Source: Candidatus Fervidifonticultor quintus (GTDB taxonomy: Bacteria > Sysuimicrobiota > Sysuimicrobiia > Sysuimicrobiales > Humicultoraceae). Taken from it: 45,115 nucleotides of DNA. Position numbers and translations under genes: made by a program. Below, piece by piece: positions 8,994-23,747 of this stretch. The stretch's first letter is position 1. Every line of letters begins with the position of its first letter. Location: NCBI GenBank assembly GCA_031459535.1, contig JAVKIJ010000016.1:1-45115 (forward strand), given 5' to 3'. The notes under the pieces were generated by a model. That model searched no databases. It was not told where the DNA came from and worked only from the letters and a program-made list of their open reading frames with translations.

Positions 8994-10484
8994 GTGGTGA
9001 ACACCTATGGCATGTCCGCAGAGGCGCAGAGCCGGCGCCATCTGGTCGACGGGGCAGTACGGGTGTTCGTTGGCGAGGCCCTGTTCTTTCCTACCGGCTT
9101 GTTGGTTGTGGCGTTCCTCACCCGCCGTCTCGGCCCCGAAGGATATGGCGTGCTGGCCCTGGTCATGGCGCCGGTGCTGTGGGTCGAATGGAGCGTAGCC
9201 GCCCTGTTTGCGCGCGCCACGGTCAAGCTCACTGGCGACGCCGGGGACTGGCGCCCCGCCGGAGGGGCCATCGTGCGGCTGCACCTCGTCGTAGGGGTGC
9301 TCGCCGCGTTGCTGCTCGTGCTGCTGGCCGATTTGGCGGCGACGTTGCTGGGCGAACCGACCCTCGCCGGCTACCTGCGACTCTTCGCCGTCGACATCCC
9401 CCTGGTGACCGTGGTCCATGCGCACCGCAGCCTGCTGGTCGGGGTCGGCGGATTCAGGTCGCGCGCGCTCGCTGCCGCCGTGCGATGGATCGCCCGGCTG
9501 TTGCTGGTCGTGGCGCTGGTGGAGATGGGCCTGTCGATTGCCGGCGCCATCCTGGGCAGCATTGGAGCGTCGCTGGTCGAGCTTGCGGTCGTCCGCACGG
9601 CCATCCGTCCGCCGCTGTTTGGCCGGGGGTCGCTCCGCGTGGGGCAGTTGTGGTCGTATGCGACGCCGCTGTTCGTCTCTGCGGTGAGCCTGCGGTTGCT
9701 CGAGCGGCTGGATCTGTTCATGCTCAAAGTACTGGGAGCCCCCACGCAGGTCGCCGGGCACTACGGCGCGGCCGCGAATCTGTCGTTCGCCCCGAAGATC
9801 TTCGCCCTGTCGCTGTCGTCTCTGCTGCTCGCGACGCTGAGCCAGTTGCTCCGGGCCGGTCGTCGGCAGGCTGCCGCGGCACTGGCTCGAGACGCCCAGC
9901 GGGCTGCGCTGGCACTGCTGCCGCTGGCAGGCCTCGCGGCCGGCGCCGCGCCGGAGCTGGTGGCCCTAATCTTCGGGGCGGGGTATGCGCCGTCGGCGCC
10001 GCTGGTGGCCATCCTCCTGCTCTCGGCGGTGGCGTCCGTTCAGATCTCGGTCAGTACGGCGGTCCTGGTGGGTGTCGGAAAGCCCAAGTGGACCGCCTGG
10101 ATCGCGTGGCCGCTGGTACCGATGGCAGCTGCGGGCCACTGGCTGGCGATTCCGCGGTTTGGGGCCGCAGGCGCGGCCACGGTCACCTCCGCGTGCGCTG
10201 GGCTGGGCGCGGCCGCCGGCATGCTGGCGGTGCGCCGCGTCGCAGGTGTCGCACCGCCACTGGCCACCTTCGGTCGCAGTGCCGTCCTCACTGTGGGCGG
10301 CTACCTCGTTGCCGCCGCATGGCCGACGTCCGGGGCGGGAGTGCTGATCAAACTGGGCGTCCTGGTCGCGGCTGCCGCCGTCGGATTCCTGGTCCTGGGC
10401 GAGGCCGGGGCAGGCGCCTGGCGGCTCATCTGGCCAGCGCTGCTCCGCCAGGCGCCCAATGCCGGGGAGCGCGGATCCCAATGA
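8994..10484 (+). CDS. Wzx-like polysaccharide flippase (MOP superfamily)
   Basis: LTRRLGPEGYG, RLDLFML, AGHYGAA, IPRFGAAGAA motifs and multiple hydrophobic segments; start could be ATG 9012. Confidence 0.85.
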   Translation: MVNTYGMSAEAQSRRHLVDGAVRVFVGEALFFPTGLLVVAFLTRRLGPEGYGVLALVMAPVLWVEWSVAALFARATVKLTGDAGDWRPAGGAIVRLHLVVGVLAALLLVLLADLAATLLGEPTLAGYLRLFAVDIPLVTVVHAHRSLLVGVGGFRSRALAAAVRWIARLLLVVALVEMGLSIAGAILGSIGASLVELAVVRTAIRPPLFGRGSLRVGQLWSYATPLFVSAVSLRLLERLDLFMLKVLGAPTQVAGHYGAAANLSFAPKIFALSLSSLLLATLSQLLRAGRRQAAAALARDAQRAALALLPLAGLAAGAAPELVALIFGAGYAPSAPLVAILLLSAVASVQISVSTAVLVGVGKPKWTAWIAWPLVPMAAAGHWLAIPRFGAAGAATVTSACAGLGAAAGMLAVRRVAGVAPPLATFGRSAVLTVGGYLVAAAWPTSGAGVLIKLGVLVAAAAVGFLVLGEAGAGAWRLIWPALLRQAPNAGERGSQ

Positions 10485-12061
10485 GCCTGCTCGGCGATCT
10501 GTGCATGTACGCCCGTTTCTCGCGGGCGCTGCCCGGGTTCCTGCGTCATACGACGACCCTGGAAGAAGCCCGCGCCGTCGTCCGGCGGCGGCTGGAGGGC
10601 CGCGACGACGCCTTCCTCCGGCTCCTCGAGCGCGGTATCTTCGGGTATCCGCGGAGCCCGTACCTAGCCCTCTTGCGGCATGCCGGGTGCGAGTTTGCCG
10701 ACGTGCGGGAGATGGTGCGGCGTCGGGGGCTCGAGAAGACGCTCGCGGCGCTGCGGGAGGCCGGGGTCTACGTCACGTTCGAGGAGTTCAAGGGACGCAG
10801 GCCGATCGTTCGCGGCGGGCTGGAGCTGCAGGTGCGGGCCGAGGACTTCAACAACCCGTACCTGCGGCCCCACTACGAGGCGCGCTCAGGAGGCACGACG
10901 GGCCCGGGGACCCGCGTGCCGATCGAGCTGGACCAGCTCGCCGCCCGGGTCCACCAGCGCGTGCTGGTCTACGAAGCGCACGGGCTCCTGGACGCGCCCA
11001 CCGCCATCTGGAGAGGGCTGCTGCCGGAGGTGACCGGGCTCAGCAACGTCCTCCAGGGGGCGCGCATGGGCAACGTGCCGCGCAAGTGGTATGTGCCCGC
11101 CACGCCGGGGCGGGTGCGGCAGCCAATTCGCTATCGCCTGGCGACCTGGCATATCCTTGTGCTCGCCCGCCTGCTGGGAGTCGCGTTGCCATCTCCGGAG
11201 CCGCTGCCGCTGGACCGGGCCGCGGTCCTGGCCCGGTGGGCGGTTGCGACCGCGAGGAAGGACGGGCGATGCCTGATCCGGTGCAGCCCCAGCGCGGGCG
11301 TGCGCCTGGCGCTGGCAGCGCGGGAGGAGGGGCTCGACCTGAGCGGCGTGACGATCATGGGCGGGGGCGAGCCTGGAACGCCCGGGAAGGTGGCGCAGAT
11401 GCTGCGTGCCGGCGCCCGGTGGATCCCGAACTATGTGATGAGCGAAGCCGGGTACATCGGCGCCGGATGCGCGCGGCCCGCCGACGAGGGCGACATGCAC
11501 TTCCTGAAAGACGGCCTGGCCCTGGTCCAGCACCCGCGAACAGTCCCAGGCTCGTCGATCGCGGTCGACGCTTTCTACTTCACGACTCTGCTCCCGTCGG
11601 CACCCAAGATCATGCTGAACACGGAGAGCGACGACTATGGCGTCGTGGAGGCCCGGTCGTGCGGCTGCCCCCTCGAGGCGTGCGGGTTCACCGAGCACTT
11701 CCGCTACGTACGCAGCTTCGGCAAGCTCACCGGCCACGGGATGACCCTGGTCGGTACCGACCTAGTGCGGGTGCTCGAGGAGGTCCTGCCGGCGCGCTTC
11801 GGCGGTAGCCCGCTGGACTACCAGCTGGCTGAGGTGGAGGACGAGACGGGGTTCACTCGATTCGAGATTCTCGTCGACCCCAAGGTCCCGATCGCCGATG
11901 AGGCCCGCGTGGCCGACGTGGTGCTCGAGTCGCTCGCCGCGGGGCCACGGGAGCTGTACCGGCAGGCGGGAACGATCAGGGTCAGGCGTGCACCACCCAT
12001 CTGGACCCCGCGGACGAGGCTCCTGCCGTTGCACCTGACCCGCCGGGGGCGAGACCCGTGA
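10481..12061 (+). CDS. PaaK/CapK/GH3-like adenylate-forming protein, paralog B
   Basis: ATGA overlap with the flippase stop. RSGGTTG, YVMSEAG, ESDDYG, RSCGC motifs. Shares GVYVTF[DE]EFKGR, PSAPK, KLTG.GMT and LEEVLPAR.GG with paralog A. Confidence 0.7.
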   Translation: MSLLGDLCMYARFSRALPGFLRHTTTLEEARAVVRRRLEGRDDAFLRLLERGIFGYPRSPYLALLRHAGCEFADVREMVRRRGLEKTLAALREAGVYVTFEEFKGRRPIVRGGLELQVRAEDFNNPYLRPHYEARSGGTTGPGTRVPIELDQLAARVHQRVLVYEAHGLLDAPTAIWRGLLPEVTGLSNVLQGARMGNVPRKWYVPATPGRVRQPIRYRLATWHILVLARLLGVALPSPEPLPLDRAAVLARWAVATARKDGRCLIRCSPSAGVRLALAAREEGLDLSGVTIMGGGEPGTPGKVAQMLRAGARWIPNYVMSEAGYIGAGCARPADEGDMHFLKDGLALVQHPRTVPGSSIAVDAFYFTTLLPSAPKIMLNTESDDYGVVEARSCGCPLEACGFTEHFRYVRSFGKLTGHGMTLVGTDLVRVLEEVLPARFGGSPLDYQLAEVEDETGFTRFEILVDPKVPIADEARVADVVLESLAAGPRELYRQAGTIRVRRAPPIWTPRTRLLPLHLTRRGRDP

Positions 12062-13599
12062 CCGCCCGCTGGCTTGTCGCGGCATTGCTCGCGCTCCTGG
12101 GGCTGCATCCGCCAGCGAGGCTCGATGCCCAGCCGCCGCGGCCCGATGTGCGCGTCCGCCTGCAGTTCGCGCGGGCGGTCGATCTGGACCCCGCCAACAA
12201 CACCCGCGCGTCAGACTATTTCGTGTACTGCAACATCTTCAGCCATCTGGTGCGGTATCGGCCTGGAGGGACCGAGCTGGAGCCCGACCTGGCAGAGCGC
12301 TGGCAGGCCTCATCCGGCGGCCGGGTGTGGACGTTTCGTCTGCGTCGGGGTGTGCAGTTCCACGGGGGGTACGGTGAGGCGACCGCGCACGACGTGAAGT
12401 TCACGTTCGAGCGCATCCTCGACCCCGCCGCAAACAGCCCGGCCGCCGGCGATTTCAGCATCATCAACCGCATCGCGGTCCTCGATCCGTATACCGTGCA
12501 GTTCACGCTGCGGGAGCCCAGCCTGGTGTTCGACGGGAATCAGATGGCGAGCCGGTCGGCCATGATCGTCTCGCGCAGGGCCGTGCTCGAGCGCGGCAAG
12601 GCGTTCTCGCGGTCGCCGATCGGCACCGGTCCCTTCGTCTTCGCCCAGTGGACCCCGGCGGACGAGCTCGTCGTCGAGGCCAACGACCGCTACTTCCGGG
12701 GCCCGCCGCGCGTGGCGCGGATCACGTTCGTGCCCATCGCGGAAGAGACGGTGGCGGTCGCCGCGCTGGAACGCGGGGAGATCCATGCCATGTGGACGCG
12801 CGGCAGCGTCGAGGCCGAACGGCTGCTGCGGGCCAACACGAGCATCGCGGCCGAGGTCGTCCGGCGCCGCAACGCCGTGCGGTTCCTGGGGCTCAATCCG
12901 CAGGTGGCGGCCTTCGCCGACGTGCGGGTCCGGCGCGCCCTGGCCCACGCCATCAACAAGCGCGAACTGGCCCTGGCCAGTGCCGGCCAGCTCACCCCTG
13001 CGGACCACCTGTTGCCCGACCTGCCCTACCTGCAGGCGGCGGGGCGGGCCGGCAAGTTCCCGATCTACGCCTACGATCCGGCCAGGGCCAAACGGCTCCT
13101 GGCCGACGCGGGCTACCCGGGACTGCGCACGACGTTGACGTTTCCGCTCTCATCGCCCGGGCCGCTCGTGGCGCAGGTCATCGCCGAGCAGTTGCGGCGC
13201 GTGGGGGTCGAGGTGCACCTGGAAGGGCTGGAACAGGTCGCATGGAACCGGCGGTGGCGCCAGGTGCAGTTCCAGATGACGCTCATCAGTTTCGGGCGTG
13301 GCATCGACCCCGATCAGCACGCGCGGGAGATCCTGCACTCGTCGGGGTTTCCGCCCGGGCGCAACACGGCCCGGTATGATGCCGCCGACCGGCTGATCGA
13401 GGCCGCGTCCGTGGAGCCCGACCCGCAGCGCCGTCAGGCGCTGTACGTGCAACTGCTGCGGCAGGTGATGACGGACCTGCCGTACATCCCGCTGGCCAAC
13501 GAGGCGTTCATCGCGGCATGGCGCGCGCCGATCAGGCGGGTGGTCAGCGGCATCAACAACGAGTTCTACGGCTTCACGATCGAGACCGGAGGCCGATAG
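12058..13599 (+). CDS. ABC transporter substrate-binding protein, family 5 (Opp/Dpp/Nik)
   Basis: Signal peptide; PDLAERW, WTFRLRRGVQFH, TAHDVKFTFER, PIGTGPF, DVRVRRALAHAI, YDPARAKRLL motifs. Confidence 0.93.
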   Translation: MTARWLVAALLALLGLHPPARLDAQPPRPDVRVRLQFARAVDLDPANNTRASDYFVYCNIFSHLVRYRPGGTELEPDLAERWQASSGGRVWTFRLRRGVQFHGGYGEATAHDVKFTFERILDPAANSPAAGDFSIINRIAVLDPYTVQFTLREPSLVFDGNQMASRSAMIVSRRAVLERGKAFSRSPIGTGPFVFAQWTPADELVVEANDRYFRGPPRVARITFVPIAEETVAVAALERGEIHAMWTRGSVEAERLLRANTSIAAEVVRRRNAVRFLGLNPQVAAFADVRVRRALAHAINKRELALASAGQLTPADHLLPDLPYLQAAGRAGKFPIYAYDPARAKRLLADAGYPGLRTTLTFPLSSPGPLVAQVIAEQLRRVGVEVHLEGLEQVAWNRRWRQVQFQMTLISFGRGIDPDQHAREILHSSGFPPGRNTARYDAADRLIEAASVEPDPQRRQALYVQLLRQVMTDLPYIPLANEAFIAAWRAPIRRVVSGINNEFYGFTIETGGR

Positions 13600-13602
13600 C
13601 CG

Positions 13603-14544
13603 GTGGCCCGGTACGTGGTCAGGAGGCTGGGGGTCGCGCTCTCGACACTAGGACTGGTCGTGGCGGCCTCGTTCTTGATGGTGCGGCTGGCGCCCGGGGA
13701 TCCGGCCGAGGCGTTTGCCGATGAGGTCCGGCTGAGCGACGAGCAACTGACGCGGGCGCGCCATGCGCTCGGTCTCGATCGGCCGGTGCCCCTGCAGTTC
13801 GCCGCCTACCTGGGCCGCCTGCTCCGCGGCGACCTCGGGCGATCATACTTCTCGCAGGAGCCCGTTGGCGCGTTGATCCGCTCTCGGCTGCGGTTCACGC
13901 TGGAACTGGCGCTGGCAGCCCACGTGCTCTCCGTCGCCATAGGTATCCCGCTGGGCCTGCTGGCAGCAGTGCGGCGCGACTCGTGGCTCGATCACCTGGC
14001 CATGACCTCGGCGGTGGCCCTGCATGCCATGCCGCGGTTCTGGATCGGGCTGGCCCTCTTGCTGGTCTTCGCGCTGCGGTTGCCGTGGTTTCCGGTCATC
14101 GGGGCCGGGTCGCCCGGCGATCCGCTGGACCGTCTGCACCACCTGGTGCTCCCGGCGATGGCCGTGGCCCTGACGCAGGCCGCGCTGCTGGCGCGGGTGA
14201 CCCGGGCCGGCATGCTCGAGGCGCTGAGCCAGGACTTCGTGCGGACGGCGCGCGGCAAAGGCCTGGCCCCGCGTCACGTGCTGATCCGCCACGGGCTGCG
14301 CAGCGCCCTGCCCCCGGTCGCCACGGTGGCCGGCCTGGGACTGGGCCGGTTGCTCGGAGGCTCGGTGGTCATCGAGACGGTATTCGTCCGCCCGGGCATC
14401 GGCACACTGCTGGTCGAGGCCATGCGGTCGCGTGACTATCCGGTGGTGCAGGGCGCGATCCTGATCTTCGCCGTGGGCATTGTCGTCCTCAACGCCGCGG
14501 TGGACCTCCTGTATCCCGTCTTCGACCCCCGGGTGCGCTCGTGA
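13603..14544 (+). CDS. Opp/Dpp ABC permease, B subunit
   Basis: APGDPA, LGLDRP, GDLGRS, DFVRTARGKGL, RDYPVVQG, DPRVR motifs. Confidence 0.93.
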   Translation: MARYVVRRLGVALSTLGLVVAASFLMVRLAPGDPAEAFADEVRLSDEQLTRARHALGLDRPVPLQFAAYLGRLLRGDLGRSYFSQEPVGALIRSRLRFTLELALAAHVLSVAIGIPLGLLAAVRRDSWLDHLAMTSAVALHAMPRFWIGLALLLVFALRLPWFPVIGAGSPGDPLDRLHHLVLPAMAVALTQAALLARVTRAGMLEALSQDFVRTARGKGLAPRHVLIRHGLRSALPPVATVAGLGLGRLLGGSVVIETVFVRPGIGTLLVEAMRSRDYPVVQGAILIFAVGIVVLNAAVDLLYPVFDPRVRS

Positions 14545-15365
14545 CGCTGCTGCGCCATGGTCGCATCGCGGTCGGGTGCGGGCTGCTGGTCACCCTGGTG
14601 CTGGCCGCGCTCGGCGCGCCGTCTCTGGCGCCGCGCAATCCCCTTGCCCAGGACCTGTCCCGTCAACTGACGGCGCCCTCCCTGCCGTCGACTCCCCTTG
14701 GAACCGACCACCTGGGCCGTGACCTGTTGAGCCGGCTCCTCTACGGAGCCAGGACGTCGCTGCTGGTCGGGGGGACGTCCGTGGGACTCGGTGGGCTCCT
14801 GGGAGGCACGCTCGGCGTGGCGGCCGGGTACTTCGGGAGGTGGACGGACGCCGTCATCAGCCTGCTCACAGACGCCCTCCTCTCGTTTCCCACGCTCCTG
14901 CTGGCCCTGGCGTTCGTTGCGGTGCTGGGCAGCGGTCTGGCCAACGTGGTGGCGGCCATCGCCCTGGCCACGTGGCCAGGGGTTGCGCGCGTGATGCGAG
15001 GAGAGGTGCTGCGGGTGCGGGCGCTGGACTTCGTGACCGCAGCGCTCGCCAGCGGCGCGAGCGAGCTGCGGATCCTCTGGCGCCACGTCCTGCCCAACGC
15101 CTGGGGCCCGTTCGCGGTGGTCATCACGCTCAGTGTCGGTGGGGCCATGCTATCTGAGGCCAGCCTGGGGTTCCTCGGCCTGGGCGTGCCGCCGCCGGCA
15201 CCCACATGGGGCCGTATCGTCGGCGAAGGCATAATGCACATGCGCACGGCGCCGTGGGCGATCGCGTTCGGAGGGTTGGCGATCTTCCTGGCCGTGCTCG
15301 CGGTGAGCCTGCTGGGCGAGGGGCTGCGCGATGCCCTGACACCCAGGGGCCGTCGGCAGGCGTGA
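14541..15365 (+). CDS. Opp/Dpp ABC permease, C subunit
   Basis: LGTDHLGRDLLSRLLYGARTSL, RHVLPN, EASLGFLGLG, GEGLRDAL motifs. Confidence 0.93.
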   Translation: MTLLRHGRIAVGCGLLVTLVLAALGAPSLAPRNPLAQDLSRQLTAPSLPSTPLGTDHLGRDLLSRLLYGARTSLLVGGTSVGLGGLLGGTLGVAAGYFGRWTDAVISLLTDALLSFPTLLLALAFVAVLGSGLANVVAAIALATWPGVARVMRGEVLRVRALDFVTAALASGASELRILWRHVLPNAWGPFAVVITLSVGGAMLSEASLGFLGLGVPPPAPTWGRIVGEGIMHMRTAPWAIAFGGLAIFLAVLAVSLLGEGLRDALTPRGRRQA

Positions 15366-15385: not shown

Positions 15386-16399
15386 TTACCTCACGACGAT
15401 GCTCGCTCTCATCCCGAACATGTCGTGGGTCGTGCATTCATACTGATAGGTGCCCGGGCGTGTAAAGGTGAGGGTGTATCGCCTGACCCCCGGACCCGTT
15501 GCGAACATGAACCCCGAGTTGTAGAAGCCCGCTCCCGTGTGGATCTTTCCTCCGGCCGGGTTCATCGAGCGCTGGTTGACCAGCATCAACGGCGGCCCCT
15601 GCGGCTGCGGCTTCATGGTCATGACCTCGAACGGGTCCCTGGCTCCGAAGGTCACTGTGTGCATTTCGCCTGGATCCTTCATGACCCAATTGACGGTCTC
15701 GCCGCGGCGGACCTCCAGGCGCTGGGCCGGGAAACGGTAAAGCGAGACAGGATCACGCGCCGTGCCTACGAGATCGAGGGTGTAGGTTCGCTTGCCGGCC
15801 GTCCCGCGCACTACCGGTTTGTTCGAGGCCCGCAGCGCTTCTGCCCTGGCCAGCGCCGCCTTTGACTCTTGAGCCGCGATCTGATCGTATTCGGCCTGTG
15901 TCCTGGGATGGGGACTTCCCGCGGTCCGTACCGTGATGGTGCCCTCCATCCCCGGATGGAACATGCAGAGATAGGTATAGGTCCCGGCCTTGGTGAAGGT
16001 CACCGCGTATCGCTTTGGCGCCTTGGGATCTGCCGACGAGAGTACCCCTCCGCTCAGTGGGCCGATGCCGTCGTAGGTCTTGGTCGGCGTCGGCAAGACG
16101 ACCGCCGGGTTCCAGAGCAGCTCGTTCTTGGTTGTGCCCGGCACAATGAGGTCAGGAGGCTGCTGCCCGGCCGGAAAGTAGATGGTGTGATCCGAGGCAC
16201 CCACGGCCCACTGGACCGTGTCGCCCTCGTTGATCGTGACGGCCTTGGGCAGGAAGAGCAACGCCTGCAGGGCCTGGTCATCCCTTGAAGACCCCGCCCT
16301 GATGGTCCATATCGTCGCAGCGCTGGCGCGCGGTAATGTGGGGATCAGCGCCGCACCGAAGGCAGCGCACAACAATCCCAGTAATAGACGTCTGATCAC
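15386..16399 (-). CDS. Secreted two-domain cupredoxin (two type-1 copper sites)
   Basis: Signal peptide. Domain 1 has DHTIYF...YLCMFHPGM; domain 2 has MHTVTF...YECTTHDMFGM. Both carry the His-Cys-His-Met ligand set. GGGAGG RBS. Confidence 0.85.
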   Translation of the reverse strand: MIRRLLLGLLCAAFGAALIPTLPRASAATIWTIRAGSSRDDQALQALLFLPKAVTINEGDTVQWAVGASDHTIYFPAGQQPPDLIVPGTTKNELLWNPAVVLPTPTKTYDGIGPLSGGVLSSADPKAPKRYAVTFTKAGTYTYLCMFHPGMEGTITVRTAGSPHPRTQAEYDQIAAQESKAALARAEALRASNKPVVRGTAGKRTYTLDLVGTARDPVSLYRFPAQRLEVRRGETVNWVMKDPGEMHTVTFGARDPFEVMTMKPQPQGPPLMLVNQRSMNPAGGKIHTGAGFYNSGFMFATGPGVRRYTLTFTRPGTYQYECTTHDMFGMRASIVVR

Positions 16400-16465
16400 A
16401 ACTCACCTCCCAGAATGTCGCTTGACCGTTGGGCTGCGCGTGCAGGCCGAGTTCCGGCCATGGTG

Positions 16466-16508
16466 AGTATAGGATCGAGCCTCAGACCGGGGTGTGACCA
16501 ATTTCACT
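16466..16508 (-). promoter_or_regulatory. Class II Crp/Fnr-type promoter of the cupredoxin gene
   Basis: TGTGA-ccaatt-TCACT (16493-16508; 9/10 match to the CRP consensus) centred 29.5 bp upstream of TATACT (16471-16466), i.e. at -41.5. Confidence 0.7.
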
Positions 16509-16513
16509 GGAAC

Positions 16514-16559
16514 CGTGTGCGATTGCGCACACGTGATTGGGTACCCCTGGGCGTACACT
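16514..16559 (+). promoter_or_regulatory. Second Crp/Fnr-type box and -10 for the small peptide gene
   Basis: Palindrome cgTGTGC-gattgc-GCACAcg (16514-16533) centred at about -42.5 relative to TACACT (16554-16559). Confidence 0.6.
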
Positions 16560-16628
16560 GAGAGCCAGGTGGCCGACCGTCGGTACTCAGACGAGAGACC
16601 ACCAACTCGATGGAAGAGGTGGACCATA

Positions 16629-16805
16629 ATGAAGAAGCTGATAGCGGCCGCCGTCCTGAGCGGCCTCATGTTCTCGGCGCTTCCCCGCACCACAGTCGCG
16701 GACGTGGAAGGGCCGCGTGAGGAGATCCGGCCGCCGATCGTGGCGATGACGAACGACACTCCCGAGGGACCGCGCGAGGAGCTCATTCCGCCCGTGGCGA
16801 GCTAA
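16629..16805 (+). CDS. 58-aa secreted peptide with duplicated EGPREE-x-x-PP motif
   Basis: MKKLIAAAVLSGLMFSALPRTTVA (signal-peptide-like) then DVEGPREEIRPPIVA and DTPEGPREELIPPVAS; GAGGTGG RBS before the ATG. Confidence 0.75.
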   Translation: MKKLIAAAVLSGLMFSALPRTTVADVEGPREEIRPPIVAMTNDTPEGPREELIPPVAS

Positions 16806-16845
16806 CGCCCGCGGGCGCGGCGCCAACGCGTCGCACCGTGTGCAG

Positions 16846-16878
16846 ACCGGCGGAGGCGGGCGCCCGTCTCCTCCGGTG
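16846..16878. terminator. GC-rich hairpin between convergent peptide and crp genes
   Basis: accggcggaggcggg-cg-cccgtctcctccggt imperfect inverted repeat; no clear U-tract. Confidence 0.35.
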
Positions 16879-16910
16879 GCCGCATTCCGCGGATTAGCAC
16901 CCTGCGGGCC

Positions 16911-17600
16911 TCAGGACATGCGTGCGCGCAACCGTTGGGGATTTGTGATGACGATCGTACGTCCCCGCATCTGGATGAGGCCCGCAGCCTTGAAGGCAGC
17001 CAGCGCCCGGTTGACCCGCTCGCGGGTGGCGCCGATCATGCGGGCCAGCTCTGCCTGGGTCACGTGGAGGTCGAGGACGAGCCCGTCCTCCTGATGGCCG
17101 TGCCGTTCGGCCATATCGAGGAGCACGTGAGCCAGCCGTCCATAAACGTCTTGCAGAGCCAGTGATTCCGTGTACTCGGTCATGCGCCGCTGTCGGGCGC
17201 CCAGCGCCGCCAGCAGCGCCATGGCCAGATCAGGGGCGCGGGTCAGTTCCCGCTGGAAGTCCGCTCGGCCCAGTGCATAGAGCACCGAGTCCTCGACCGC
17301 CTCAGCGCTGGCCGACCGGGGAAGCTGATCGAGCAGCGCCAGCTCGCCAAAGAAGTCCGTTGGCCCGAGCAGCGCCAGGGTGTGTTCCTCTCCGGCTTCC
17401 GTCTGCAGAAAGATGCGCACCCGGCCCGACTCGATGAGGTAGAGCGCATCTCCGTCCTGGCCCTTCTGGAAGATCGTCGCATCGCGCCGGTAGGTGTGCC
17501 GGCGCAGGCCGGCCTCCAGAACCGCCAGCGTCTCGTCGCCAAGTGAGCTGAACAGGACGACGCGCCGCAACAGCGCCATCCGATCTGTCATGGACTCCAT
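16911..17600 (-). CDS. Crp/Fnr family transcriptional regulator (cNMP-binding + HTH)
   Basis: LYLIESGRV, FFGELALLDQLPRSASA (cNMP pocket G-E and R-S) and HTH TQAELARMIGATRERVNRAL; no N-terminal Cys cluster. Start is ATG 17600 or 17591. Confidence 0.93.
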   Translation of the reverse strand: MESMTDRMALLRRVVLFSSLGDETLAVLEAGLRRHTYRRDATIFQKGQDGDALYLIESGRVRIFLQTEAGEEHTLALLGPTDFFGELALLDQLPRSASAEAVEDSVLYALGRADFQRELTRAPDLAMALLAALGARQRRMTEYTESLALQDVYGRLAHVLLDMAERHGHQEDGLVLDLHVTQAELARMIGATRERVNRALAAFKAAGLIQMRGRTIVITNPQRLRARMS

Positions 17601-17668
17601 ACCCCGTCCGTGGAACGCCGGGCGCGGGGCGGTGTGTTCCCGCGTTGTGGGCGGCGTGGAGGTCTCTG

Positions 17669-18151
17669 ATGGCAATCCAGCCGAAACTAATCTGTCCACA
17701 CTGCGGAGCGTCGAATAGAGAAGGCGCAAGGTTCTGCTTAGGCTGCGGCGGGAGTCTGGCCGGCCGAACATGTCCCCACTGTGGCCAAAGGGTCACCCGG
17801 GGGAGCGCGATGTTCTGCGAGAACTGCGGGCAATCCCTGGGCATTCCAGCAGCCGATCCACGGCCTCCTGTGCACCCCGGCCCGGCTCCTCCAAGCGGCG
17901 TTGGGCCGCCCTCCAGCCCCGGTGAGCCATCATCCGGACCGATGGGACCTCCGATCTCGACCGCACCGCCCCAGGCCCTTCCTCCCGCAGCCACACCTCC
18001 ACCAACCATCGTACCTCCCGTAACGGCACACATGGCACGCCCCGCACCGCCGGAGCCGGTGCAGGCTCCACGGGCCCAGGCATGCCCGGCGTGTGGTAGG
18101 TCGGTGAGGCCGGGCGCACGCTTCTGCCCGGCCTGCGGGAGTATTTCATAG
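17669..18151 (+). CDS. Multi zinc-ribbon (DZR) protein with Pro-rich linker
   Basis: Six CxxCG motifs: CPHCG, CLGCG, CPHCG, CENCG, then after a Pro-rich linker CPACG, CPACG. Confidence 0.8.
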   Translation: MAIQPKLICPHCGASNREGARFCLGCGGSLAGRTCPHCGQRVTRGSAMFCENCGQSLGIPAADPRPPVHPGPAPPSGVGPPSSPGEPSSGPMGPPISTAPPQALPPAATPPPTIVPPVTAHMARPAPPEPVQAPRAQACPACGRSVRPGARFCPACGSIS

Positions 18152-18856
18152 AACCGCTTCCACTAGCGGCGGGCCGGGCCGCCAGGCTCCTTGCATCACG
18201 ACGCCACCGAACGTGCTGCTCATGCTGTAGATGATCGGCCCGGACATCCCTACGCTCAACAGTTCAGGATCAGAAGGGAAGTACATCACCGCAAAGAGCA
18301 CGACGATTTCCCTCAGTCGCTTCTTCTCCGACAGCTGGAGCAGGGCCGGTTGAAGCAGGACGATTGGCGCTGCGCTTGCATCGGGGTACTCTACCTTCAC
18401 GAATGCCGTGTGATAGGGGATGCCCGTAACTATCCGTCCTAAGGTGTCCTTGAGGTCCAGGTTGACTTTGCTCGGGCCACGCAGCTCCAAGATGGCTGCC
18501 CGGGTTTTTGGTTGGAAGAGGAACAGCGAAGAGTCGACCGGACCAAGTATTGATGACTCAAGAGCTAGTGCGTCTCGCCGCTGCAGGAAATCTCTCCTGA
18601 CCTCGTCTTGCAGCTTCCCGATTTGCTGCGACCACAGGGCCTGTGGGTACTGCCGTTTGACTTGGGCCTCCCCAGCCCGGTACAGAAAGTTGAAAGTGAA
18701 AAACGGTCCCAGATCCCCGGAAGTGAGCCCCCGCACATAGCGGGATGCGATCTCCTGCGCAGACGGCGGCCCTGCTGCCAGAGCTGGCACGCCCTCCAGG
18801 GCCAGAATGACGATAAGCAATGAGACGATAATTCGCTCCCTGTATAGGACTTTCAC
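18146..18856 (-). CDS. Hypothetical exported protein
   Basis: 236-aa ORF, hydrophobic N-terminus ending ALA-A, GAGGAGGGG upstream, visibly more AT-rich than its neighbours; no family recognised. Confidence 0.55.
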   Translation of the reverse strand: MKVLYRERIIVSLLIVILALEGVPALAAGPPSAQEIASRYVRGLTSGDLGPFFTFNFLYRAGEAQVKRQYPQALWSQQIGKLQDEVRRDFLQRRDALALESSILGPVDSSLFLFQPKTRAAILELRGPSKVNLDLKDTLGRIVTGIPYHTAFVKVEYPDASAAPIVLLQPALLQLSEKKRLREIVVLFAVMYFPSDPELLSVGMSGPIIYSMSSTFGGVVMQGAWRPGPPLVEAVL

Positions 18857-18895
18857 AGCACACCGCCCCCCTCCTCAGCAGCGTTCGCAAACCGC

Positions 18896-19234
18896 GGTGT
18901 CCCAGGGCCAGTTGAAATTGCACTCGCAGCCCCGACCATCACTACGCCACCTGTCCGCCAGGGTGAGGGTTTCCTCGATCCCTTCGGCCAGGCTGCGAAC
19001 CGCGTCCCGGTTCGGCCGCCGCAACTCCCCGTGGAGCCGGTCCAGCATCGACCGCGCGGCCGCATACGTCGGCTGCCGATAGGCGTGCTGTAACTTGGCC
19101 CGCCAGGCGGCCTGAAGATGCTTGGGGAGGTAGGCGACCACATTCTCCCGCTTGTGCCAGATACACCGTTGGATCTGCGCCTGCGCTCCGAAGACCTCGC
19201 GGACTGTCCGCCGCAATCCCTTGCCGCCATCGAG
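18896..19234 (-). mobile_element. IS256-family (Mutator) transposase remnant
   Basis: LDGGKGLRRTVREVFG...IQRCIWHKRENVVAYLP...AVRSLAEGIEETLTL is the DG..GL / QRC.xH catalytic region. It is followed by AATTTCAACTGGCCCTGGGACACC, resembling an IS256-type end. Confidence 0.75.
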
Positions 19235-19538
19235 GAGCACTACGTCCTCTGTGTCGCAGACCGAAAGACTTTCACACTCCTCCCGGGGCACGAACTCCTT
19301 AGCAATCCCTGTTCGGAAGTATTCCGCGGTTAGGTAGGGAAGTGCTCGATCAGCGGGTTCCCTTGCCGTCAGGCGTGGCTTTCTGCCCTTCCTAATAATC
19401 GGCGAGATGAGAAAGCGGGCGAACCTCCCACTCATCCGGCAGCGGGCCGAGTTCGGTTATCTTGAAGCCCTCGGGGAGGTCAACGGCAATCTCCGCGGCT
19501 GCTCGGACTGTAGTTACATGACCCGTTCCTGGTCCCAT
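19235..19538 (-). pseudogene. hsdS: Truncated, frameshifted type I RM specificity subunit
   Basis: LPEGFKITELGPLPDEWEVRPLSHLADY then TAG at 19394-19392. A one-base shift continues RKGRKP...LPYLTAEYFRTG...DVVL, which is then fused to the IS256 fragment. Confidence 0.8.
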
Positions 19539-19585
19539 TTGCGCCTTTCTTGCGCCTTCACTGCGCCATTTGCGCCTTTCTTGCG
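19535..19585. repeat. 20-bp direct repeat x2
   Basis: ccatttgcgcctttcttgcg at 19535-19554 and 19566-19585. Confidence 0.9.
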
Positions 19586-20916
19586 GCATACCGCGTACCC
19601 CGTCCCGTCGAGCCAATCCTCTCCAGGACCCCCTTCTCGACCAAGTCGCCAAGCTCTGCGGTGGCCGTCCGCTCCTTAGCCCCAGTGAGCTCCCGATATT
19701 CCTTGTTGTTGATGCCCCCGCGCGCCTTCACGTACAGCACAGCCTGGACCTGCCGGTCATTCAGTCCCATCGCTCGGAGCCGCTCCGGAGTGAACGGGTC
19801 CTTCAGGAACACCACCCGGAACCCTCCGGCCTCCTCAGCGAACTCGGGTTCGGGCAGGCCCCGGTTCCTGCACCACTCCAGGATGCGGGTCGTCCCGGTA
19901 CCCCACTGCTCGATCAGACCGGCGAAGTAGAAGGCTCTGGCGAGCATGGGGTTGCGCGGGATCGACGGGTGGTTCGGGGCGCGGAGCTGATCCAGGCGGA
20001 TGCCTTCGGGGAGCCGACCGGGATTCCAAATCTGGAGCCGGTCGTCCTGCAGCCGGATCTGAATGTCGCCCGGGGCCGCGTAGTCCCGATGAATGAGCGC
20101 ATTGATGACGCCCTCCCGCAGGGCCTCCAGGGGGTACTCCCAGATCTCCTTGCGCTGCAGCCCTTCTACGGTGGGTTCGGTCACGCTGACGTCGAACCGC
20201 ACCTGAAGCAGCCTGCGGAATCGCTCCATCACACCGTCGAGCTGCTGCCACAACGCGCCCCTAAAGTCGTGACTGTCAACGATCCCGGTCCCTTTGAACA
20301 CGCCTATGCGCGCCTGGGCGTGGGGTAACAGCTCCTGAGGGCTGTCCGCGAAAAGCAGCACACCGGCGTTGGTGAGCCGCCCGTCCCGGATCAGGCCGAG
20401 GTTTCGAAGCGTGCGATTGGGATCTGCGGGGTCGATCTCCGGCAGCCGTGATCTCGCCAGTTCCGCGAATCGAGCCAGCACAGCCCCATCGATCCGGTCG
20501 AGCCCCCAGGGGCTGGCGACACCGTCCCAGCTCTGCCCCGACCGTTCCATCATCAGGCGAGCCAGTTCATCCTGGGAAAGGTCGCGGTTGGTGCTACCCA
20601 CACGGGTCAGGTAGCGCCCGCCGTACCCCACGATGCCGCGGGCTCGCTCGACGTGGATCTTGATGATCTCCCGGTCTTCCACGGTCTGGCGTGCAATCGA
20701 CGGCGTCAACCCCAGCCGCGACACGACGACGTTGGCGATTCGCTCAATCTCGGCGTCGTGCGCCGCTGTGCCGATGACTTCCCCGTCCTTCCGCACCCCG
20801 ATCAGCACTGTGCCGCCTCCGGTGTTGGCGAAGGCTGCCAGATCTTCCAGCGCACGGTCGGTCCACTGCTGCTTGAACTCAACCTCTTCGCCTTCCTGGA
20901 GGTCAATCTTTGGCAC
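19558..20916 (-). CDS. AlbA_2 (Schlafen-like) + HATPase_c_4 + winged-HTH protein
   Basis: EGEEVEFKQ, LAAFANTGGG, YPLEALREGVINALIHRDY, IWNPGRL, RNPMLA, IEQWGTG, C-terminal INNKEYREL wHTH. GTG 20916 with GGAGG RBS. Confidence 0.85.
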   Translation of the reverse strand: MPKIDLQEGEEVEFKQQWTDRALEDLAAFANTGGGTVLIGVRKDGEVIGTAAHDAEIERIANVVVSRLGLTPSIARQTVEDREIIKIHVERARGIVGYGGRYLTRVGSTNRDLSQDELARLMMERSGQSWDGVASPWGLDRIDGAVLARFAELARSRLPEIDPADPNRTLRNLGLIRDGRLTNAGVLLFADSPQELLPHAQARIGVFKGTGIVDSHDFRGALWQQLDGVMERFRRLLQVRFDVSVTEPTVEGLQRKEIWEYPLEALREGVINALIHRDYAAPGDIQIRLQDDRLQIWNPGRLPEGIRLDQLRAPNHPSIPRNPMLARAFYFAGLIEQWGTGTTRILEWCRNRGLPEPEFAEEAGGFRVVFLKDPFTPERLRAMGLNDRQVQAVLYVKARGGINNKEYRELTGAKERTATAELGDLVEKGVLERIGSTGRGTRYAARKAQMAQ

Positions 20917-22474
20917 TGAACCCTCCGAGGCCAAGCGTCTCCAGGACCCGCGCCAGCTCGCGGTCGGCCTGAGCCCGCTCCTCTTCCGCCTCCCGAAGCA
21001 GCACGACCGCCTCCTCCAGCGGCAGGACCTCCTCTTTCTCGCCGCTGGCGACGTACCGGCTCGGCGAAAGGTTGTAGTCATTGCGGGCGGCCTCGTCCTT
21101 GGTGATCAGGGCTGCCAGCCCTTCCTGGGGCTCCCAGGCTTGGTAGATCTCGGCGATCCGGGTAATGTGCTCCTCGGCGAGAAAGTTCTTTGGGCGTCCC
21201 TTGCTAAAGAGTTTGCTCGCGTTGATCAGCAGGATCTGGCCAGGATGCCGCTTGGCCTTGTTGATGATCATGATGATGCCGGGTGCGGTCGTGTTATAGA
21301 AGAGGTTCTCTGGCAGCAGGACCACGGCCTCGACCATATCGGCTTCAACGAAGCCACGGCGAATGTCCCGCTCACGGTTGTTGCCCTGGTTGCCGCTGCC
21401 GCGGCTGACCGCCCCGGTATCAATCACAACGGCCATCCTTCCCCCGTCGCGGAGCGAGGCCAGCATGTGCTGAATCCAGCCCCAGTCGGCGCTGGAGGAG
21501 GGCGGGGTGCCCGAGCGGAAGCGGTCATAGAGGTCGTTCTCGTACACGCTTGGCGGGAAGGGCTGGTTCCACATGGGATTGGCGGCAACGATGTCGAACC
21601 GCCGCAGCCGCCCGTCAGCGTCAGTCAGGGCCGGCCTCCGCATGGTATCCCCGAGGCGAATGTCGGCCTCCATTTCATGGATAAACGCGTTCATTCGGGC
21701 GATGGCGAATGTCGCGGGGTTGATCTCCTGCCCAAAGAGTCTGAGCGGCGCAGCCCGCTCCGGGAGCCGCAGCCGTCCGTTCCGGCGTTCTCCGTGGGTC
21801 TCCAGGAGCCGCAGGTGGCACTTGATAAGCAAACCCCCGGAGCCGCAGCAGGGATCGTAGACTTCCATTCCCGGTTGAGGTTCGAGGATGCGCGCCATCA
21901 GGATCGCTACCTCGCGCGGAGTATAGAACTCACCAGCGCTCTGCCCCTGGCCCTCGGCGAACTTCCTGAGAAGGTACTCGTAGGCGCGGCCGAAGATGTC
22001 GGGTTCGACGTCGTCCAGCCCCAGGCGGTACTTGCTCAGCACCTGGACCAGGGCCGAAAGCGGCTCTTCGTCGAGGATGCGCTGACCTGCCGCGGTGGCG
22101 TTGAAGTCGATCACGTCGATGACGCCCTGGAGGCGGGGATTCTCGCGGGCAACGCTACGGACGGCATCGGTGAGGTACTGGCCGAGGCCGGTGGTAACCT
22201 TCGAGATCGCCGGCCATCGAGCTCCGGGCGGGATGTAGAATCGGACGAGCTTGTGATCGTCCTCGACAAGCCTGGCTGCCTTCTCCTTGCTCCCGAAGTC
22301 GTGGCCGAGGTGCTCTACTTCGTCATCGAAGACATCTGATAGTCGCTTCAGGAAGATCAGCGGGAGGATGTAGTCCTTGAACTTGGGGGCATCGACCGGC
22401 CCGCGGATGACGCAGGCGGCCTCCCAAAGCCATGACTCAAGGGTCGAGACGTCGAGCCCGCTGTTCCCAGGCAT
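20903..22474 (-). CDS. hsdM: Type I restriction-modification N6-adenine methyltransferase subunit
   Basis: LWEAACVIRG, YILPLIFLKRLSD, AYEYLLRKFAEG, GEFYTP, motif I YDPCCGSGG, motif IV ANPMWN, LPENLFYNT, YNLSPSRYV. Confidence 0.95.
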   Translation of the reverse strand: MPGNSGLDVSTLESWLWEAACVIRGPVDAPKFKDYILPLIFLKRLSDVFDDEVEHLGHDFGSKEKAARLVEDDHKLVRFYIPPGARWPAISKVTTGLGQYLTDAVRSVARENPRLQGVIDVIDFNATAAGQRILDEEPLSALVQVLSKYRLGLDDVEPDIFGRAYEYLLRKFAEGQGQSAGEFYTPREVAILMARILEPQPGMEVYDPCCGSGGLLIKCHLRLLETHGERRNGRLRLPERAAPLRLFGQEINPATFAIARMNAFIHEMEADIRLGDTMRRPALTDADGRLRRFDIVAANPMWNQPFPPSVYENDLYDRFRSGTPPSSSADWGWIQHMLASLRDGGRMAVVIDTGAVSRGSGNQGNNRERDIRRGFVEADMVEAVVLLPENLFYNTTAPGIIMIINKAKRHPGQILLINASKLFSKGRPKNFLAEEHITRIAEIYQAWEPQEGLAALITKDEAARNDYNLSPSRYVASGEKEEVLPLEEAVVLLREAEEERAQADRELARVLETLGLGGFSAKD

Positions 22475-22730
22475 CTGTCAACCTCGCCCGAATTGGTTCA
22501 GGACCCGCAAACTTCAGCCTCAGGAGTAAGATTCGAAGGTCGTCAGGAAGCACCTCTTCAACACGAGGTGGCGAACCGTCACGACAAAGGGCCTGCTCCG
22601 GAACTGCACGCATACTCCCGTCCTGCGACTGTGAGGACTATGCCCCGCAGGTTTTCAGCGGGCTCGCCCTTCTGAATTGCGCGCTCACGTCCCGAGACCC
22701 CACGCTCCTCGCGCCGGCCCAGGAGGGCCC

Positions 22731-23651
22731 TCACTCCAACCGCAGCCGTTCAATCGCCCCGGCCTTCTTGTGCGCCCGCCGCAGGTCCGCCCCGACCAGG
22801 CTGCTGTACCGCAGCGTGGTGTTGAGGCTCTCGTGCCCGAGCAGCTGGCGTACCTCGTCCAACCCCGCGCCATTCCGAAGCCAGGCCGTCGCCGCGAAGT
22901 GTCGGAGCGCGTGGGGGTGCAGCCGTCGGTGCGGTGGCAGGCCGGCCTTGGCCGAAAGCCGATGGAGCAAGGTCACCAGGTGCCGGCGCTTGAGCGGCCG
23001 GCCCCGGCGGTCGGTGAACAGAAACGACTCCGGGGACGGGGTCGGGTGACGCGCCAGCCACGCCTTCAGGGCCCGTGTCGTGGTCGGCCCGATGAAGGCC
23101 ACCCGGTCCTTGCGGCCTTTGCCGGCCCGCACGAACAGGCCACGGTCGGCGGACCTCCAGTCCTCGACCAGCAGGTGTAGCACCTCGCTGGCGCGCAGGC
23201 CGGCATCCGCCAGCGCAAGGATGAGCGCCCGGTTCCTGGTGCCCTCCAGGGTGTTGGGACATGCCGCAAGCACAGCGCGCAGTTCGTCCTCGGAGGGCAC
23301 GTCGGGCAGCGTCTTGGGCGTGCGCATGGCGAACCCGCGCAGAGGGCTCTCCGCGAGCGCGCCGACCTCGACGCACCACCGGAAGAACGTCTTGAGGGTC
23401 CGGTACGCCTGGTGCTGGAGGCTGGCGCTGCGCTGCTGCAGTCCGGCGAGGAACCGGCGCACACTGAGCGCCGTCACCTCGGGCACCTCGGCGGTCAGCC
23501 GGCGCAGCCACCAGTCATAGACCTGGAGCGTGGCCTGGGTGCAGCCGGCCACGCGCTTGGTCAGCAGGAACGCCTCGACAGCATCAGCGAGGGGGTGAGC
23601 CCCTGCTTTCTCGGCGGGTTTGGCGAGGGGTCCAACGGCTGAAACCCGCAT
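22731..23651 (-). CDS. Tyrosine recombinase/integrase (XerC/D-like)
   Basis: Complete catalytic set: GLRASE (R), GKGRKDR (K), HALRH (HxxR), LGHES (H), TTLRY (Y). Abuts the tRNA 3' end. Confidence 0.92.
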   Translation of the reverse strand: MRVSAVGPLAKPAEKAGAHPLADAVEAFLLTKRVAGCTQATLQVYDWWLRRLTAEVPEVTALSVRRFLAGLQQRSASLQHQAYRTLKTFFRWCVEVGALAESPLRGFAMRTPKTLPDVPSEDELRAVLAACPNTLEGTRNRALILALADAGLRASEVLHLLVEDWRSADRGLFVRAGKGRKDRVAFIGPTTTRALKAWLARHPTPSPESFLFTDRRGRPLKRRHLVTLLHRLSAKAGLPPHRRLHPHALRHFAATAWLRNGAGLDEVRQLLGHESLNTTLRYSSLVGADLRRAHKKAGAIERLRLE

Positions 23652-23662
23652 CCCGACTGGAT

Positions 23663-23737
23663 TGGTGGAGACGAGGGGATTCGAACCCCCGACCCCCTGC
23701 GTGCAAAGCAGGTGCTCTCCCGCTGAGCTACGTCCCC
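23663..23737 (-). tRNA. tRNA-Ala(UGC)
   Basis: GGGGACGTAGCTCAGCGGGAGAGCACCTGCTTTGCACGCAGGGGGTCGGGGGTTCGAATCCCCTCGTCTCCACCA: cloverleaf, TGC anticodon, G3-U70 pair, encoded CCA. Confidence 0.97.
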
Positions 23738-23747
23738 ACGTCCGCCG

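Follow-up and report, generated by a model that had tools for sequence, protein, structure and literature searches.

What does a bacterium make from a 58-codon reading frame whose product is a signal-like segment followed by two short units with the same acidic motif, and how is it controlled? The locus lies in Candidatus Fervidifonticultor quintus (metagenome-assembled genome G000: 3.1 Mb in 138 contigs, 88.85% complete, 5.24% contamination), and the window, i.e. the stretch of DNA analyzed, is the whole 45,115-nt contig C47. According to the accessible part of PMC11604079, Candidatus Fervidifonticultor is a genus of Sysuimicrobiota, formerly CSP1-3. A preliminary description, made from the sequence alone, had read the frame as a 58-aa prepropeptide with two EGPREE cores, and the frame lies exactly where it was placed. 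The gene has the following parts:

16616..16622, plus strand: ribosome-binding site GAGGTGG, 6 nt upstream of the ATG and kept in three species
16629..16805, plus strand: prepropeptide ORF of 58 codons, with ATG at 16629 and TAA at 16803-16805
16629..16700, plus strand: predicted Sec signal peptide, residues 1-24, with n/h/c layout by inspection and presumed cleavage after TVA
16701..16757, plus strand: unit 1, residues 25-43, with EGPREE at 16707-16724
16758..16802, plus strand: unit 2, residues 44-58, with EGPREE at 16764-16781

In translation the product starts with MKK, 15 hydrophobic residues and PRTTVA, followed by DVEGPREEIRPPIVAMTND and TPEGPREELIPPVAS. The signal divides into MKK, LIAAAVLSGLMFSAL and PRTTVA, with the T at -3 and the A at -1 that Sec export and signal peptidase I call for; inspection of the 58-aa sequence revealed neither a twin-arginine motif nor a lipobox Cys. 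The signal is assigned by inspection plus an AF2 helix. The AF2 model, computed on the family alignment, has a confident helix at residues 2-16 (pLDDT 78-86) and pLDDT values of 57-62 in the mature part. The predicted mature peptide has 34 residues, a net charge of -5 and 7 Pro; as modeled, it is disordered and has no stable fold. The EGPREE copies are encoded by gaa ggg ccg cgt gag gag (copy 1) and gag gga ccg cgc gag gag (copy 2), and at the DNA level the two units are 76% alike over 29 nt at a spacing of 57 nt. Six-frame translation of the 3.1-Mb genome has no EGPREE elsewhere, and a single EGPRE or GPREE pentapeptide at 12 other places. Among 467 crude signal-like small ORFs in the genome, this is the sole secreted-type one with an internal repeat; a second flagged ORF turned out to be a piece of a membrane protein. 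An Rfam scan of 16300-17000 gave no match at E≤1.

Orthologs of the ORF are present in two further species of the same GTDB genus, G004 (58 aa, 88% identity) and G002 (75 aa, 86% identity). The G002 gene contains one additional in-frame unit of 18 codons, and ribosome-binding site, start and stop are conserved across all three species. The pairwise pN/pS is 0.43-0.59 for the whole ORF, at a pS of 0.11-0.17. It is 0.09-0.26 for signal plus motif, 0.19-0.29 for the signal by itself, and 1.3-2.1 for the tails, the last on a basis of merely 5-7 non-synonymous versus 1-2 synonymous changes. The neighboring Crp gene gives 0.18-0.29 at a pS of 0.13-0.19. As judged from these sequence comparisons, the 58-codon ORF is a genuine gene with purifying selection on signal and motif. 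It is also beyond chance, because the orthologs and the family members described below retain the layout of signal plus motif. The good ribosome-binding site, the Sec-type signal and the synonymous codon differences between the EGPREE copies, all reported in the preliminary description, are as it gave them, and its suggestion of selection at the protein level agrees with the low pN/pS of signal plus motif.

The third-position GC content (GC3) of the frame is 0.86; that of the long genes in the window is 0.78-0.90. An in-frame upstream extension to GTG 16494 would give 103 aa. As protein it is unconserved: two compensating 1-nt indels distinguish G000 from G004/G002 in this part. The opposite-strand frames over the peptide ORF are likewise open. 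RNA-library run X4, which consists of contigs from which strand, level and absence are unreadable, includes a 597-nt contig at 16746-17342 and a 487-nt contig at 16005-16471; none of the listed RNA contigs covers 16472-16745, which cannot be read as absence. Two DNA runs yield unitig assemblies that are interrupted at the first repeat unit (16707-16736), and 16766-16820 is missing from one contig of run X3. Together the interruptions and the gap suggest strain variants in unit content in the sampled populations.

The peptide has relatives beyond its orthologs. A family profile built from five sequences and run against 1.84 billion protein representatives returned 12 proteins at the cut-off of E≤1e-3. 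Inspection showed that 8 of the 12 are small proteins, 46-88 aa long, that combine a signal-like N-terminus with one to four EGPRE[E/D] units; P0003 and P0004 among them were known earlier, and the other six are new metagenomic cluster representatives. One further match, with TEGPLEE repeats and without a signal, is doubtful, and three are unrelated long repeat proteins. The matches belong to clusters of 1-2 members, come from contigs of 718-11,047 nt and are either nameless or labeled 'hypothetical protein'. Neither Pfam nor NCBIfam has a match for the family, and it is undescribed in the full-text literature, where a search for EGPREE matched only unrelated plant work. Hence the peptide family is new, without a described relative in these three sources, and the peptide is the founding member of a small family, as yet without a name, from hot-spring bacteria that are uncultured. 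The preliminary description had spoken of a new precursor and had suggested a search for EGPREE in related genomes. The precursor is indeed a signal-bearing repeat prepropeptide of a nameless family, and the searches made here yielded the orthologs in the two sister species and the six further metagenomic representatives.

Within the phylum, a two-motif DNA pattern found the family in 4 of 94 species genomes (G000, G001, G002 and G004), and an 11-row HMM matched the same four strongly; four weak HMM matches (E 0.001-0.007; G022, G057, G067 and G082) were not accepted as members. Two genomes flagged as unpublished, G022 and G013, are included in the phylum counts, the HMM, the scan of 27 loci and the tree, and the central claims are independent of them. 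A word-index search for longer or fused forms produced 351 candidates, none at E≤10. Pattern scans of public contigs, with patterns too strict for several family members (such as those with D-I-EGPRE), gave 258 matches in genomes and 385 in metagenomes. Four of the genome matches passed, three being Fervidifonticultor loci; the fourth, one ADVEGPRED within a membrane-type ORF of Planctomycetaceae, was judged to be chance. The same applies to the one metagenome match that passed, which lies antisense in a molybdopterin oxidoreductase gene. In the plasmid collection we rejected three records (E 0.6) within a TrbI/VirB10 gene, the phage collection contained no match to the peptide, and the top scores in the ESM Atlas (0.80) belonged to unnamed clusters.

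The units follow a common grammar: D-x-EGPRE[E/D], then a tail of the form phi-x-P-x-phi-phi-A or Y-R-x-R-Q-A, and then a linker of 0-5 residues. The first unit comes directly after the signal-like segment in 10 of 11 family proteins, and the C-terminus is reached 7-8 residues past the last motif in 8 of 10 stand-alone proteins. It is the motif, not the tail, that is invariant across the family, and the variable parts of the units have no conserved Cys, Ser, Thr or Lys in the 11 family proteins. Within a protein the tails agree at 50% (18 pairs), between proteins at 23% (192 pairs), a contrast that 0 of 5000 shuffles reached; this likeness could also be the outcome of recent tandem duplication without selection.

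Two species of genus g11 have in common a signal-bearing ORF of 66-77 aa (L005 351-584, plus strand; L009 1405-1614, minus strand). It matches the window peptide at E 0.001-0.04 and contains EGP and an RP..PP stretch, with no EGPRE. Judging by its sequence it may be a distant relative or may just have a similar signal; one of the two genomes concerned, G022, is flagged as unpublished.

EGPREE units also occur on a larger protein. G001 encodes a 198-aa protein that consists of a signal, two EGPREE units and a FAS1 domain at residues 77-197 (PF02469, 7.2e-45). The fasciclin ortholog has one degenerate unit in G005 and none in G004, which has the stand-alone peptide; searches of G000 (88.9% complete) and G002 (84%) gave no fasciclin gene. 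The window peptide is without a FAS1 domain (0 Pfam families), and among the loci tested FAS1 occurs in the G001 fusion. Because the units sit on a fasciclin protein in G001 and vary in the G005 and G004 orthologs, the module of signal plus units is portable. As a sequence arrangement the G001 fusion is compatible both with a propeptide that is cut off and with a retained tag or linker. An AF2 model of the G001 precursor on a 3-row alignment has a mean pLDDT of 38.7, too low for any use. The fasciclin orthologs (L004 1078-1674, L074 1501-2046 and L075 1501-1986, all on the minus strand) differ solely in the N-terminal extension, which in the three sister species ranges from two EGPREE units through a single degenerate one to no unit at all. 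The G001 fasciclin gene is divergent to a gene for a MerR plus B12-binding (light-sensor-like) regulator.

Downstream of the peptide gene the window contains a convergent regulator gene and, between the two, a hairpin:

16911..17600, minus strand: Crp/Fnr-family regulator, 229 aa, convergent partner of the peptide gene (PF00027 and PF13545)
16846..16877, no strand: GC-rich hairpin with 17-nt arms, 88% complementary, without a T run; possible two-way terminator

The peptide stop and the Crp/Fnr stop are 105 nt apart. The spacer (16806-16910) folds with -65.3 kcal/mol (z -3.16), and its hairpin keeps 22 pairs in three species, 1 of them compensatory; a terminator scan of the region gave 0 sites. 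When G000, G004 and G002 are aligned over 3.2 kb, high identity extends only from ~16480 to ~17600, a span that comprises ~150 nt of upstream sequence, the peptide gene and the Crp gene to its start codon. In G004 and G002, about 1.3 kb with Crp and peptide separates secG from a gene of the GCS2 family; the secG and GCS2 genes of G001 and G005 are just 110-130 nt apart with nothing between them. The left neighbor of the cassette in G000 is a two-domain cupredoxin gene, which in G004 is 2.5 kb farther left; on the right, the G000 cassette borders on an island of lower GC content. Independent assemblies from two DNA runs span the two junctions (15422-16736 and 17409-18900), with 0 differences each.

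Crp orthologs, 93% and 90% identical, exist in G004 and G002 only; G001 and G003 have only paralogs of 38% identity and G005 has none at E≤1e-20. Crp ortholog and stand-alone peptide are both present in 3 of the 6 genus genomes and neither was found in the other 3 (completeness 94, 98 and 91%). By these sequence comparisons, the peptide gene and the regulator form a co-inherited two-gene cassette of ~1.1-1.3 kb. The co-occurrence counts as one or two events, not six, because the three cassettes form one clade. The Crp loci of other genera carry an EGPRE[E/D] peptide in 0 of 27 cases (84,873 nt), apart from one chance EGPRE in an arginine-rich frame, and the pairing of Crp and peptide is therefore young and narrow. 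The co-inherited Crp/Fnr gene, the two promoter palindromes presented below and the N-terminal units of the fasciclin protein are new beyond the preliminary description.

A Crp homolog of genus g9 is followed by a convergent 72-aa ORF (L048 2459-2677, minus strand) with a signal-like start and a GC3 of 0.96. Its sequence is unrelated to the EGPREE family and the gene arrangement is alike.

On sequence criteria the regulator is an ordinary member of the Crp/Fnr family, of the CRP/GlxR-like kind. Pfam identifies both domains, cNMP_binding and HTH_Crp_2 (PF00027 1.1e-24, PF13545 4.7e-21). The NCBIfam CRP equivalog scores 107.5 bits against a cut-off of 266 bits, and the assignment is therefore made at the family level only. 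Full-length alignments connect the protein with solved chains of the CRP type, at E 2e-38 for the group of 3d0s, 3i54, 3mzh and 4byy (CRP/GlxR-type) and at E 1e-22 for E. coli CAP 1g6n. The 3d0s group represents M. tuberculosis Crp and C. glutamicum GlxR. In the alignment to 3d0s the regulator retains Gly-Glu, Arg-Ser-Ala and R-E-x-x-x-R; going by E. coli CRP, the first two presumably form the nucleotide pocket and the third the recognition helix. G85, R95, S96, A97, R193 and E194 are invariant in 44 sequences, i.e. the regulator and 43 homologs.

A further 31 of the 94 genomes encode homologs with 50-60% identity to the regulator. The three cassette regulators are one clade within the homologs of their own family, on a stem of 0.71 versus 0.16-0.37 for other genus stems; the tree, of 32 tblastn-extracted rows and made by a quick method, is read for clade and branch length only. 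In contrast to known CRP/GlxR proteins, the regulator is linked with a single gene for a small secreted peptide, and its branch in the Crp clade of the phylum is long. The genome contains class III cyclase domains at 5 places, and 3 weaker matches represent other cNMP-domain proteins.

Sites of the type expected in front of a CRP/GlxR target, similar to TGTGA-N6-TCACA, precede the presumed target, the peptide gene:

16493..16508, no strand: CRP-type box 1, TGTGA-N6-TCACT, with 9/10 half-site bases, TGTGACCAATTTCACT
16516..16531, no strand: CRP-type box 2, perfect palindrome TGTGC-N6-GCACA, TGTGCGATTGCGCACA
16555..16560, plus strand: putative -10 hexamer TACACT, conserved in three species within CTACACTGAGA

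The box centers are 128.5 and 105.5 bp before the peptide ATG. Box 1 is one of just 21 sites in the 3.1-Mb genome with ≤1 mismatch to TGTGA-N6-TCACA, 0 of them perfect, and box 2 is one of 2 perfect TGTGC-N6-GCACA sites. In both G004 and G002, box 1 is identical at 15/16 positions and the 20 nt at 16494-16513 at 20/20; the whole upstream stretch is identical at 110/144 and 114/144 positions, respectively. Both differences in box 2 fall in the central spacer, leaving the half-sites intact. Both boxes keep their spacing from the ATG, which for box 2 is 113 nt, likewise at loci L031 and L032. The boxes stay with the peptide gene despite different divergent neighbors, which are cupredoxin in G000 and secG in G004/G002. 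By this pattern of sequence conservation the two palindromes are candidate CRP operators that travel with the cassette, and they could serve another cNMP-domain protein instead of the cassette regulator. A consensus promoter scan of the region returned 0 sites, so that TACACT is offered only as a putative -10. The other genome sites with CRP-like boxes include no further small secreted gene.

Outside the window, contig C49 contains at ~22900-23700 some 0.8 kb without a convincing ORF, with direct repeats of the GTTGCTGAAA type and repeated hairpins. Two neighboring CRP-like boxes, 18 nt apart, close this region, which resembles a replication origin or another control region of a mobile element.

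Within the window, directly to the right of the Crp start, lies an island of lower GC content (61-65%) at 17600-23740, with these genes:

17645-18151, plus strand: multi-zinc-ribbon protein
18146-18856, minus strand: 236-aa signal-bearing protein without a family
18875-19435, minus strand: Mutator transposase fragment
19558-21081, minus strand: Schlafen AlbA_2 / HATPase_c_4 regulator
20903-22474, minus strand: type I HsdM methylase, with no HsdR or HsdS seen
22731-23651, minus strand: tyrosine integrase at the island end, adjoining tRNA-Ala(TGC) at 23663-23737

A search for an att repeat of the tRNA-Ala end gave none of ≥12 nt for this island. A 449-aa ORF at 10459-11808 (plus strand), elsewhere in the window, has no Pfam or NCBIfam match and is clustered with genes for a GT2 glycosyltransferase, a Wzx-like polysaccharide exporter and a methyltransferase-domain protein.

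The reading that we favor, tentatively and at slightly less than an even chance, is that of a CRP-controlled, Sec-exported and disordered repeat propeptide, which acts extracellularly and is probably cut into units. The cAMP-loaded regulator would bind the two palindromes and switch the peptide gene on. The precursor would be exported via Sec, signal peptidase I would cut it after TVA24, and the resulting 34-residue acidic, proline-rich product would act outside the cytoplasm. Further cutting between the units would probably release peptides of 15-19 residues, each with the acidic head D-x-EGPREE, which is invariant, and a hydrophobic tail that is specific to the lineage, as in the design of a multi-copy propeptide. 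Eukaryotic examples of such propeptides are yeast alpha-factor and the fungal Kex2-processed repeat proteins. As in these, a signal is followed by repeats of a conserved acidic spacer plus peptide, which extend from close to where the signal is cleaved right to the C-terminus. However, they belong to another domain of life and the window peptide is without a dibasic Kex2 site; the analogy is no more than that. It speaks against the favored reading that the peptide gene has no linked protease for the processing, no linked receptor and no linked importer.

The lack of a linked protease would suit a product that works whole, with EGPREE as an epitope or tag that docks an envelope or surface partner or binds cations. 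The partner could possibly be the fasciclin adhesin or its ligand, and the units that G001 has in cis would in that case come in trans from the stand-alone gene. This agrees with the two units between signal and FAS1 in G001, with the one degenerate unit in G005, with the unit-free fasciclin ortholog plus stand-alone peptide in G004, and with a motif that is invariant across the family when the tail is not. Nevertheless, we regard it as rather unlikely, since the fasciclin gene was not found in G000 or G002, the motif is without His, Cys or Met for redox metals, and a tag would need neither identical tails in multiple copies nor an end exactly after a unit. The units on the fasciclin gene could also mean that the peptide gene is a non-functional leftover, either the 5' remains of a gene that once combined units and fasciclin or an ORF that high G+C prevents from closing; it is short and genus-restricted, and the frames on the opposite strand are open as well. 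We give this hardly any credence, because signal and motif are under purifying selection, because ribosome-binding site, start and stop are conserved and a unit was gained in frame, because independent small metagenomic family members have the same layout, and because GC3 is 0.86.

The peptide may have a signaling function, and the preliminary description had likened its layout to that of Phr/AimP-type signaling peptides and of multicore RiPP precursors. Taken as membership, neither likeness is supported. In the Phr/AimP case the adjacent regulator is a Crp/Fnr protein and not a TPR receptor; as that description had already stated, no RRNPP/TPR receptor occurs among the 29 window ORFs (Pfam). 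In the RiPP case a Sec signal is present and no maturase gene travels along. The layout does resemble that of RRNPPA cassettes, which in the accessible part of PMC11343458 have small Sec-exported precursors (50-120 aa) with 1-4 tandem copies next to a cytoplasmic regulator, a maturation begun by signal peptidase (as predicted for the window peptide), and tandemly duplicated pheromones in Rap-Phr of Bacillus phages. The window cassette could accordingly be a cell-cell signaling pair, in which re-imported units bind the Crp-family protein that controls the peptide promoter. Palindromes in the propeptide promoter, the behavior of the pair as a two-gene indel, the long stem to the three cassette regulators (0.71 vs 0.16-0.37) and an Opp-like operon at 12058-15365, of SBP_bac_5 (12058-13599) plus two permeases, would fit such a pair. 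So would Listeria PrfA, a Crp/Fnr regulator reported to bind imported oligopeptides with an Opp-type transporter involved and, in the sources as far as available, the sole precedent found for peptide sensing in this family (PMC6389498; bioRxiv 10.1101/2024.05.24.595734). By the same partial sources, however, PrfA responds to nutritional peptides and to glutathione rather than to a dedicated pheromone with its own gene, and there is no sign that the window regulator gave up its nucleotide pocket. The pocket residues are all kept and are invariant in 43 homologs that mostly lack such a peptide, a plain relation of regulator and target explains the linkage, the genes are convergent, and the permease operon is common and not linked in evolution; we therefore consider a signaling pair improbable. 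We hold it equally improbable that the cassette is a new type of peptide quorum-sensing module outside Bacillota, with Crp/Fnr replacing the TPR receptor, driving the propeptide gene via the two palindromes and responding to re-imported peptides with an EGPREE head, and with the tails setting the pherotype. Differences from RRNPPA systems are the intact cyclic-nucleotide pocket of a neighbor that is not a TPR-type receptor, the convergent genes, a Sysuimicrobiota-type thermophile as host in place of Bacillota or their mobile elements, an invariant part that is an acidic head of 6-8 residues, and units of 14-19 residues; RRNPPA pheromones (Phr, AimP, PapR, SHP) have 5-10 residues when mature, are released by extracellular proteases and return to the cell through Opp. 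Since the defining TPR receptor and Bacillota host are absent here, the peptide is not an RRNPPA member. Multicore RiPP precursors, e.g. cyanobactin PatE and the repeat graspetides, share with the window peptide short conserved segments that alternate with variable ones and a unit number that varies among relatives. EGPREE could then be a recognition sequence for unlinked modifying enzymes, and a GCS2 ligase gene plus a circularly permuted ATP-grasp gene do lie just past the regulator in G004 and G002. But G001 and G005, which lack the peptide, also have GCS2 and CP_ATPgrasp_2, and no GCS2 turned up in G000. There is no maturase family among the 29 window ORFs scanned and no conserved Cys, Ser, Thr or Lys to modify in the variable parts, and a Sec signal is atypical for RiPP leaders. 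A multicore RiPP precursor is thus very improbable.

In uncultured phyla, hardly any small secreted peptide has an annotation. For the EGPREE peptide the comparative evidence is unusually good, since it includes constraint, a unit grammar, variation in unit number, a co-inherited regulator and operator-like sites; with these features the cassette is a tractable entry point. If the signaling interpretation is true, a thermophilic non-Firmicute lineage would use encoded peptides, and a Crp-family protein would do more than read cAMP. If the product is merely a CRP-regulated envelope peptide, it would still represent a new family and provide a candidate CRP operator for the phylum.
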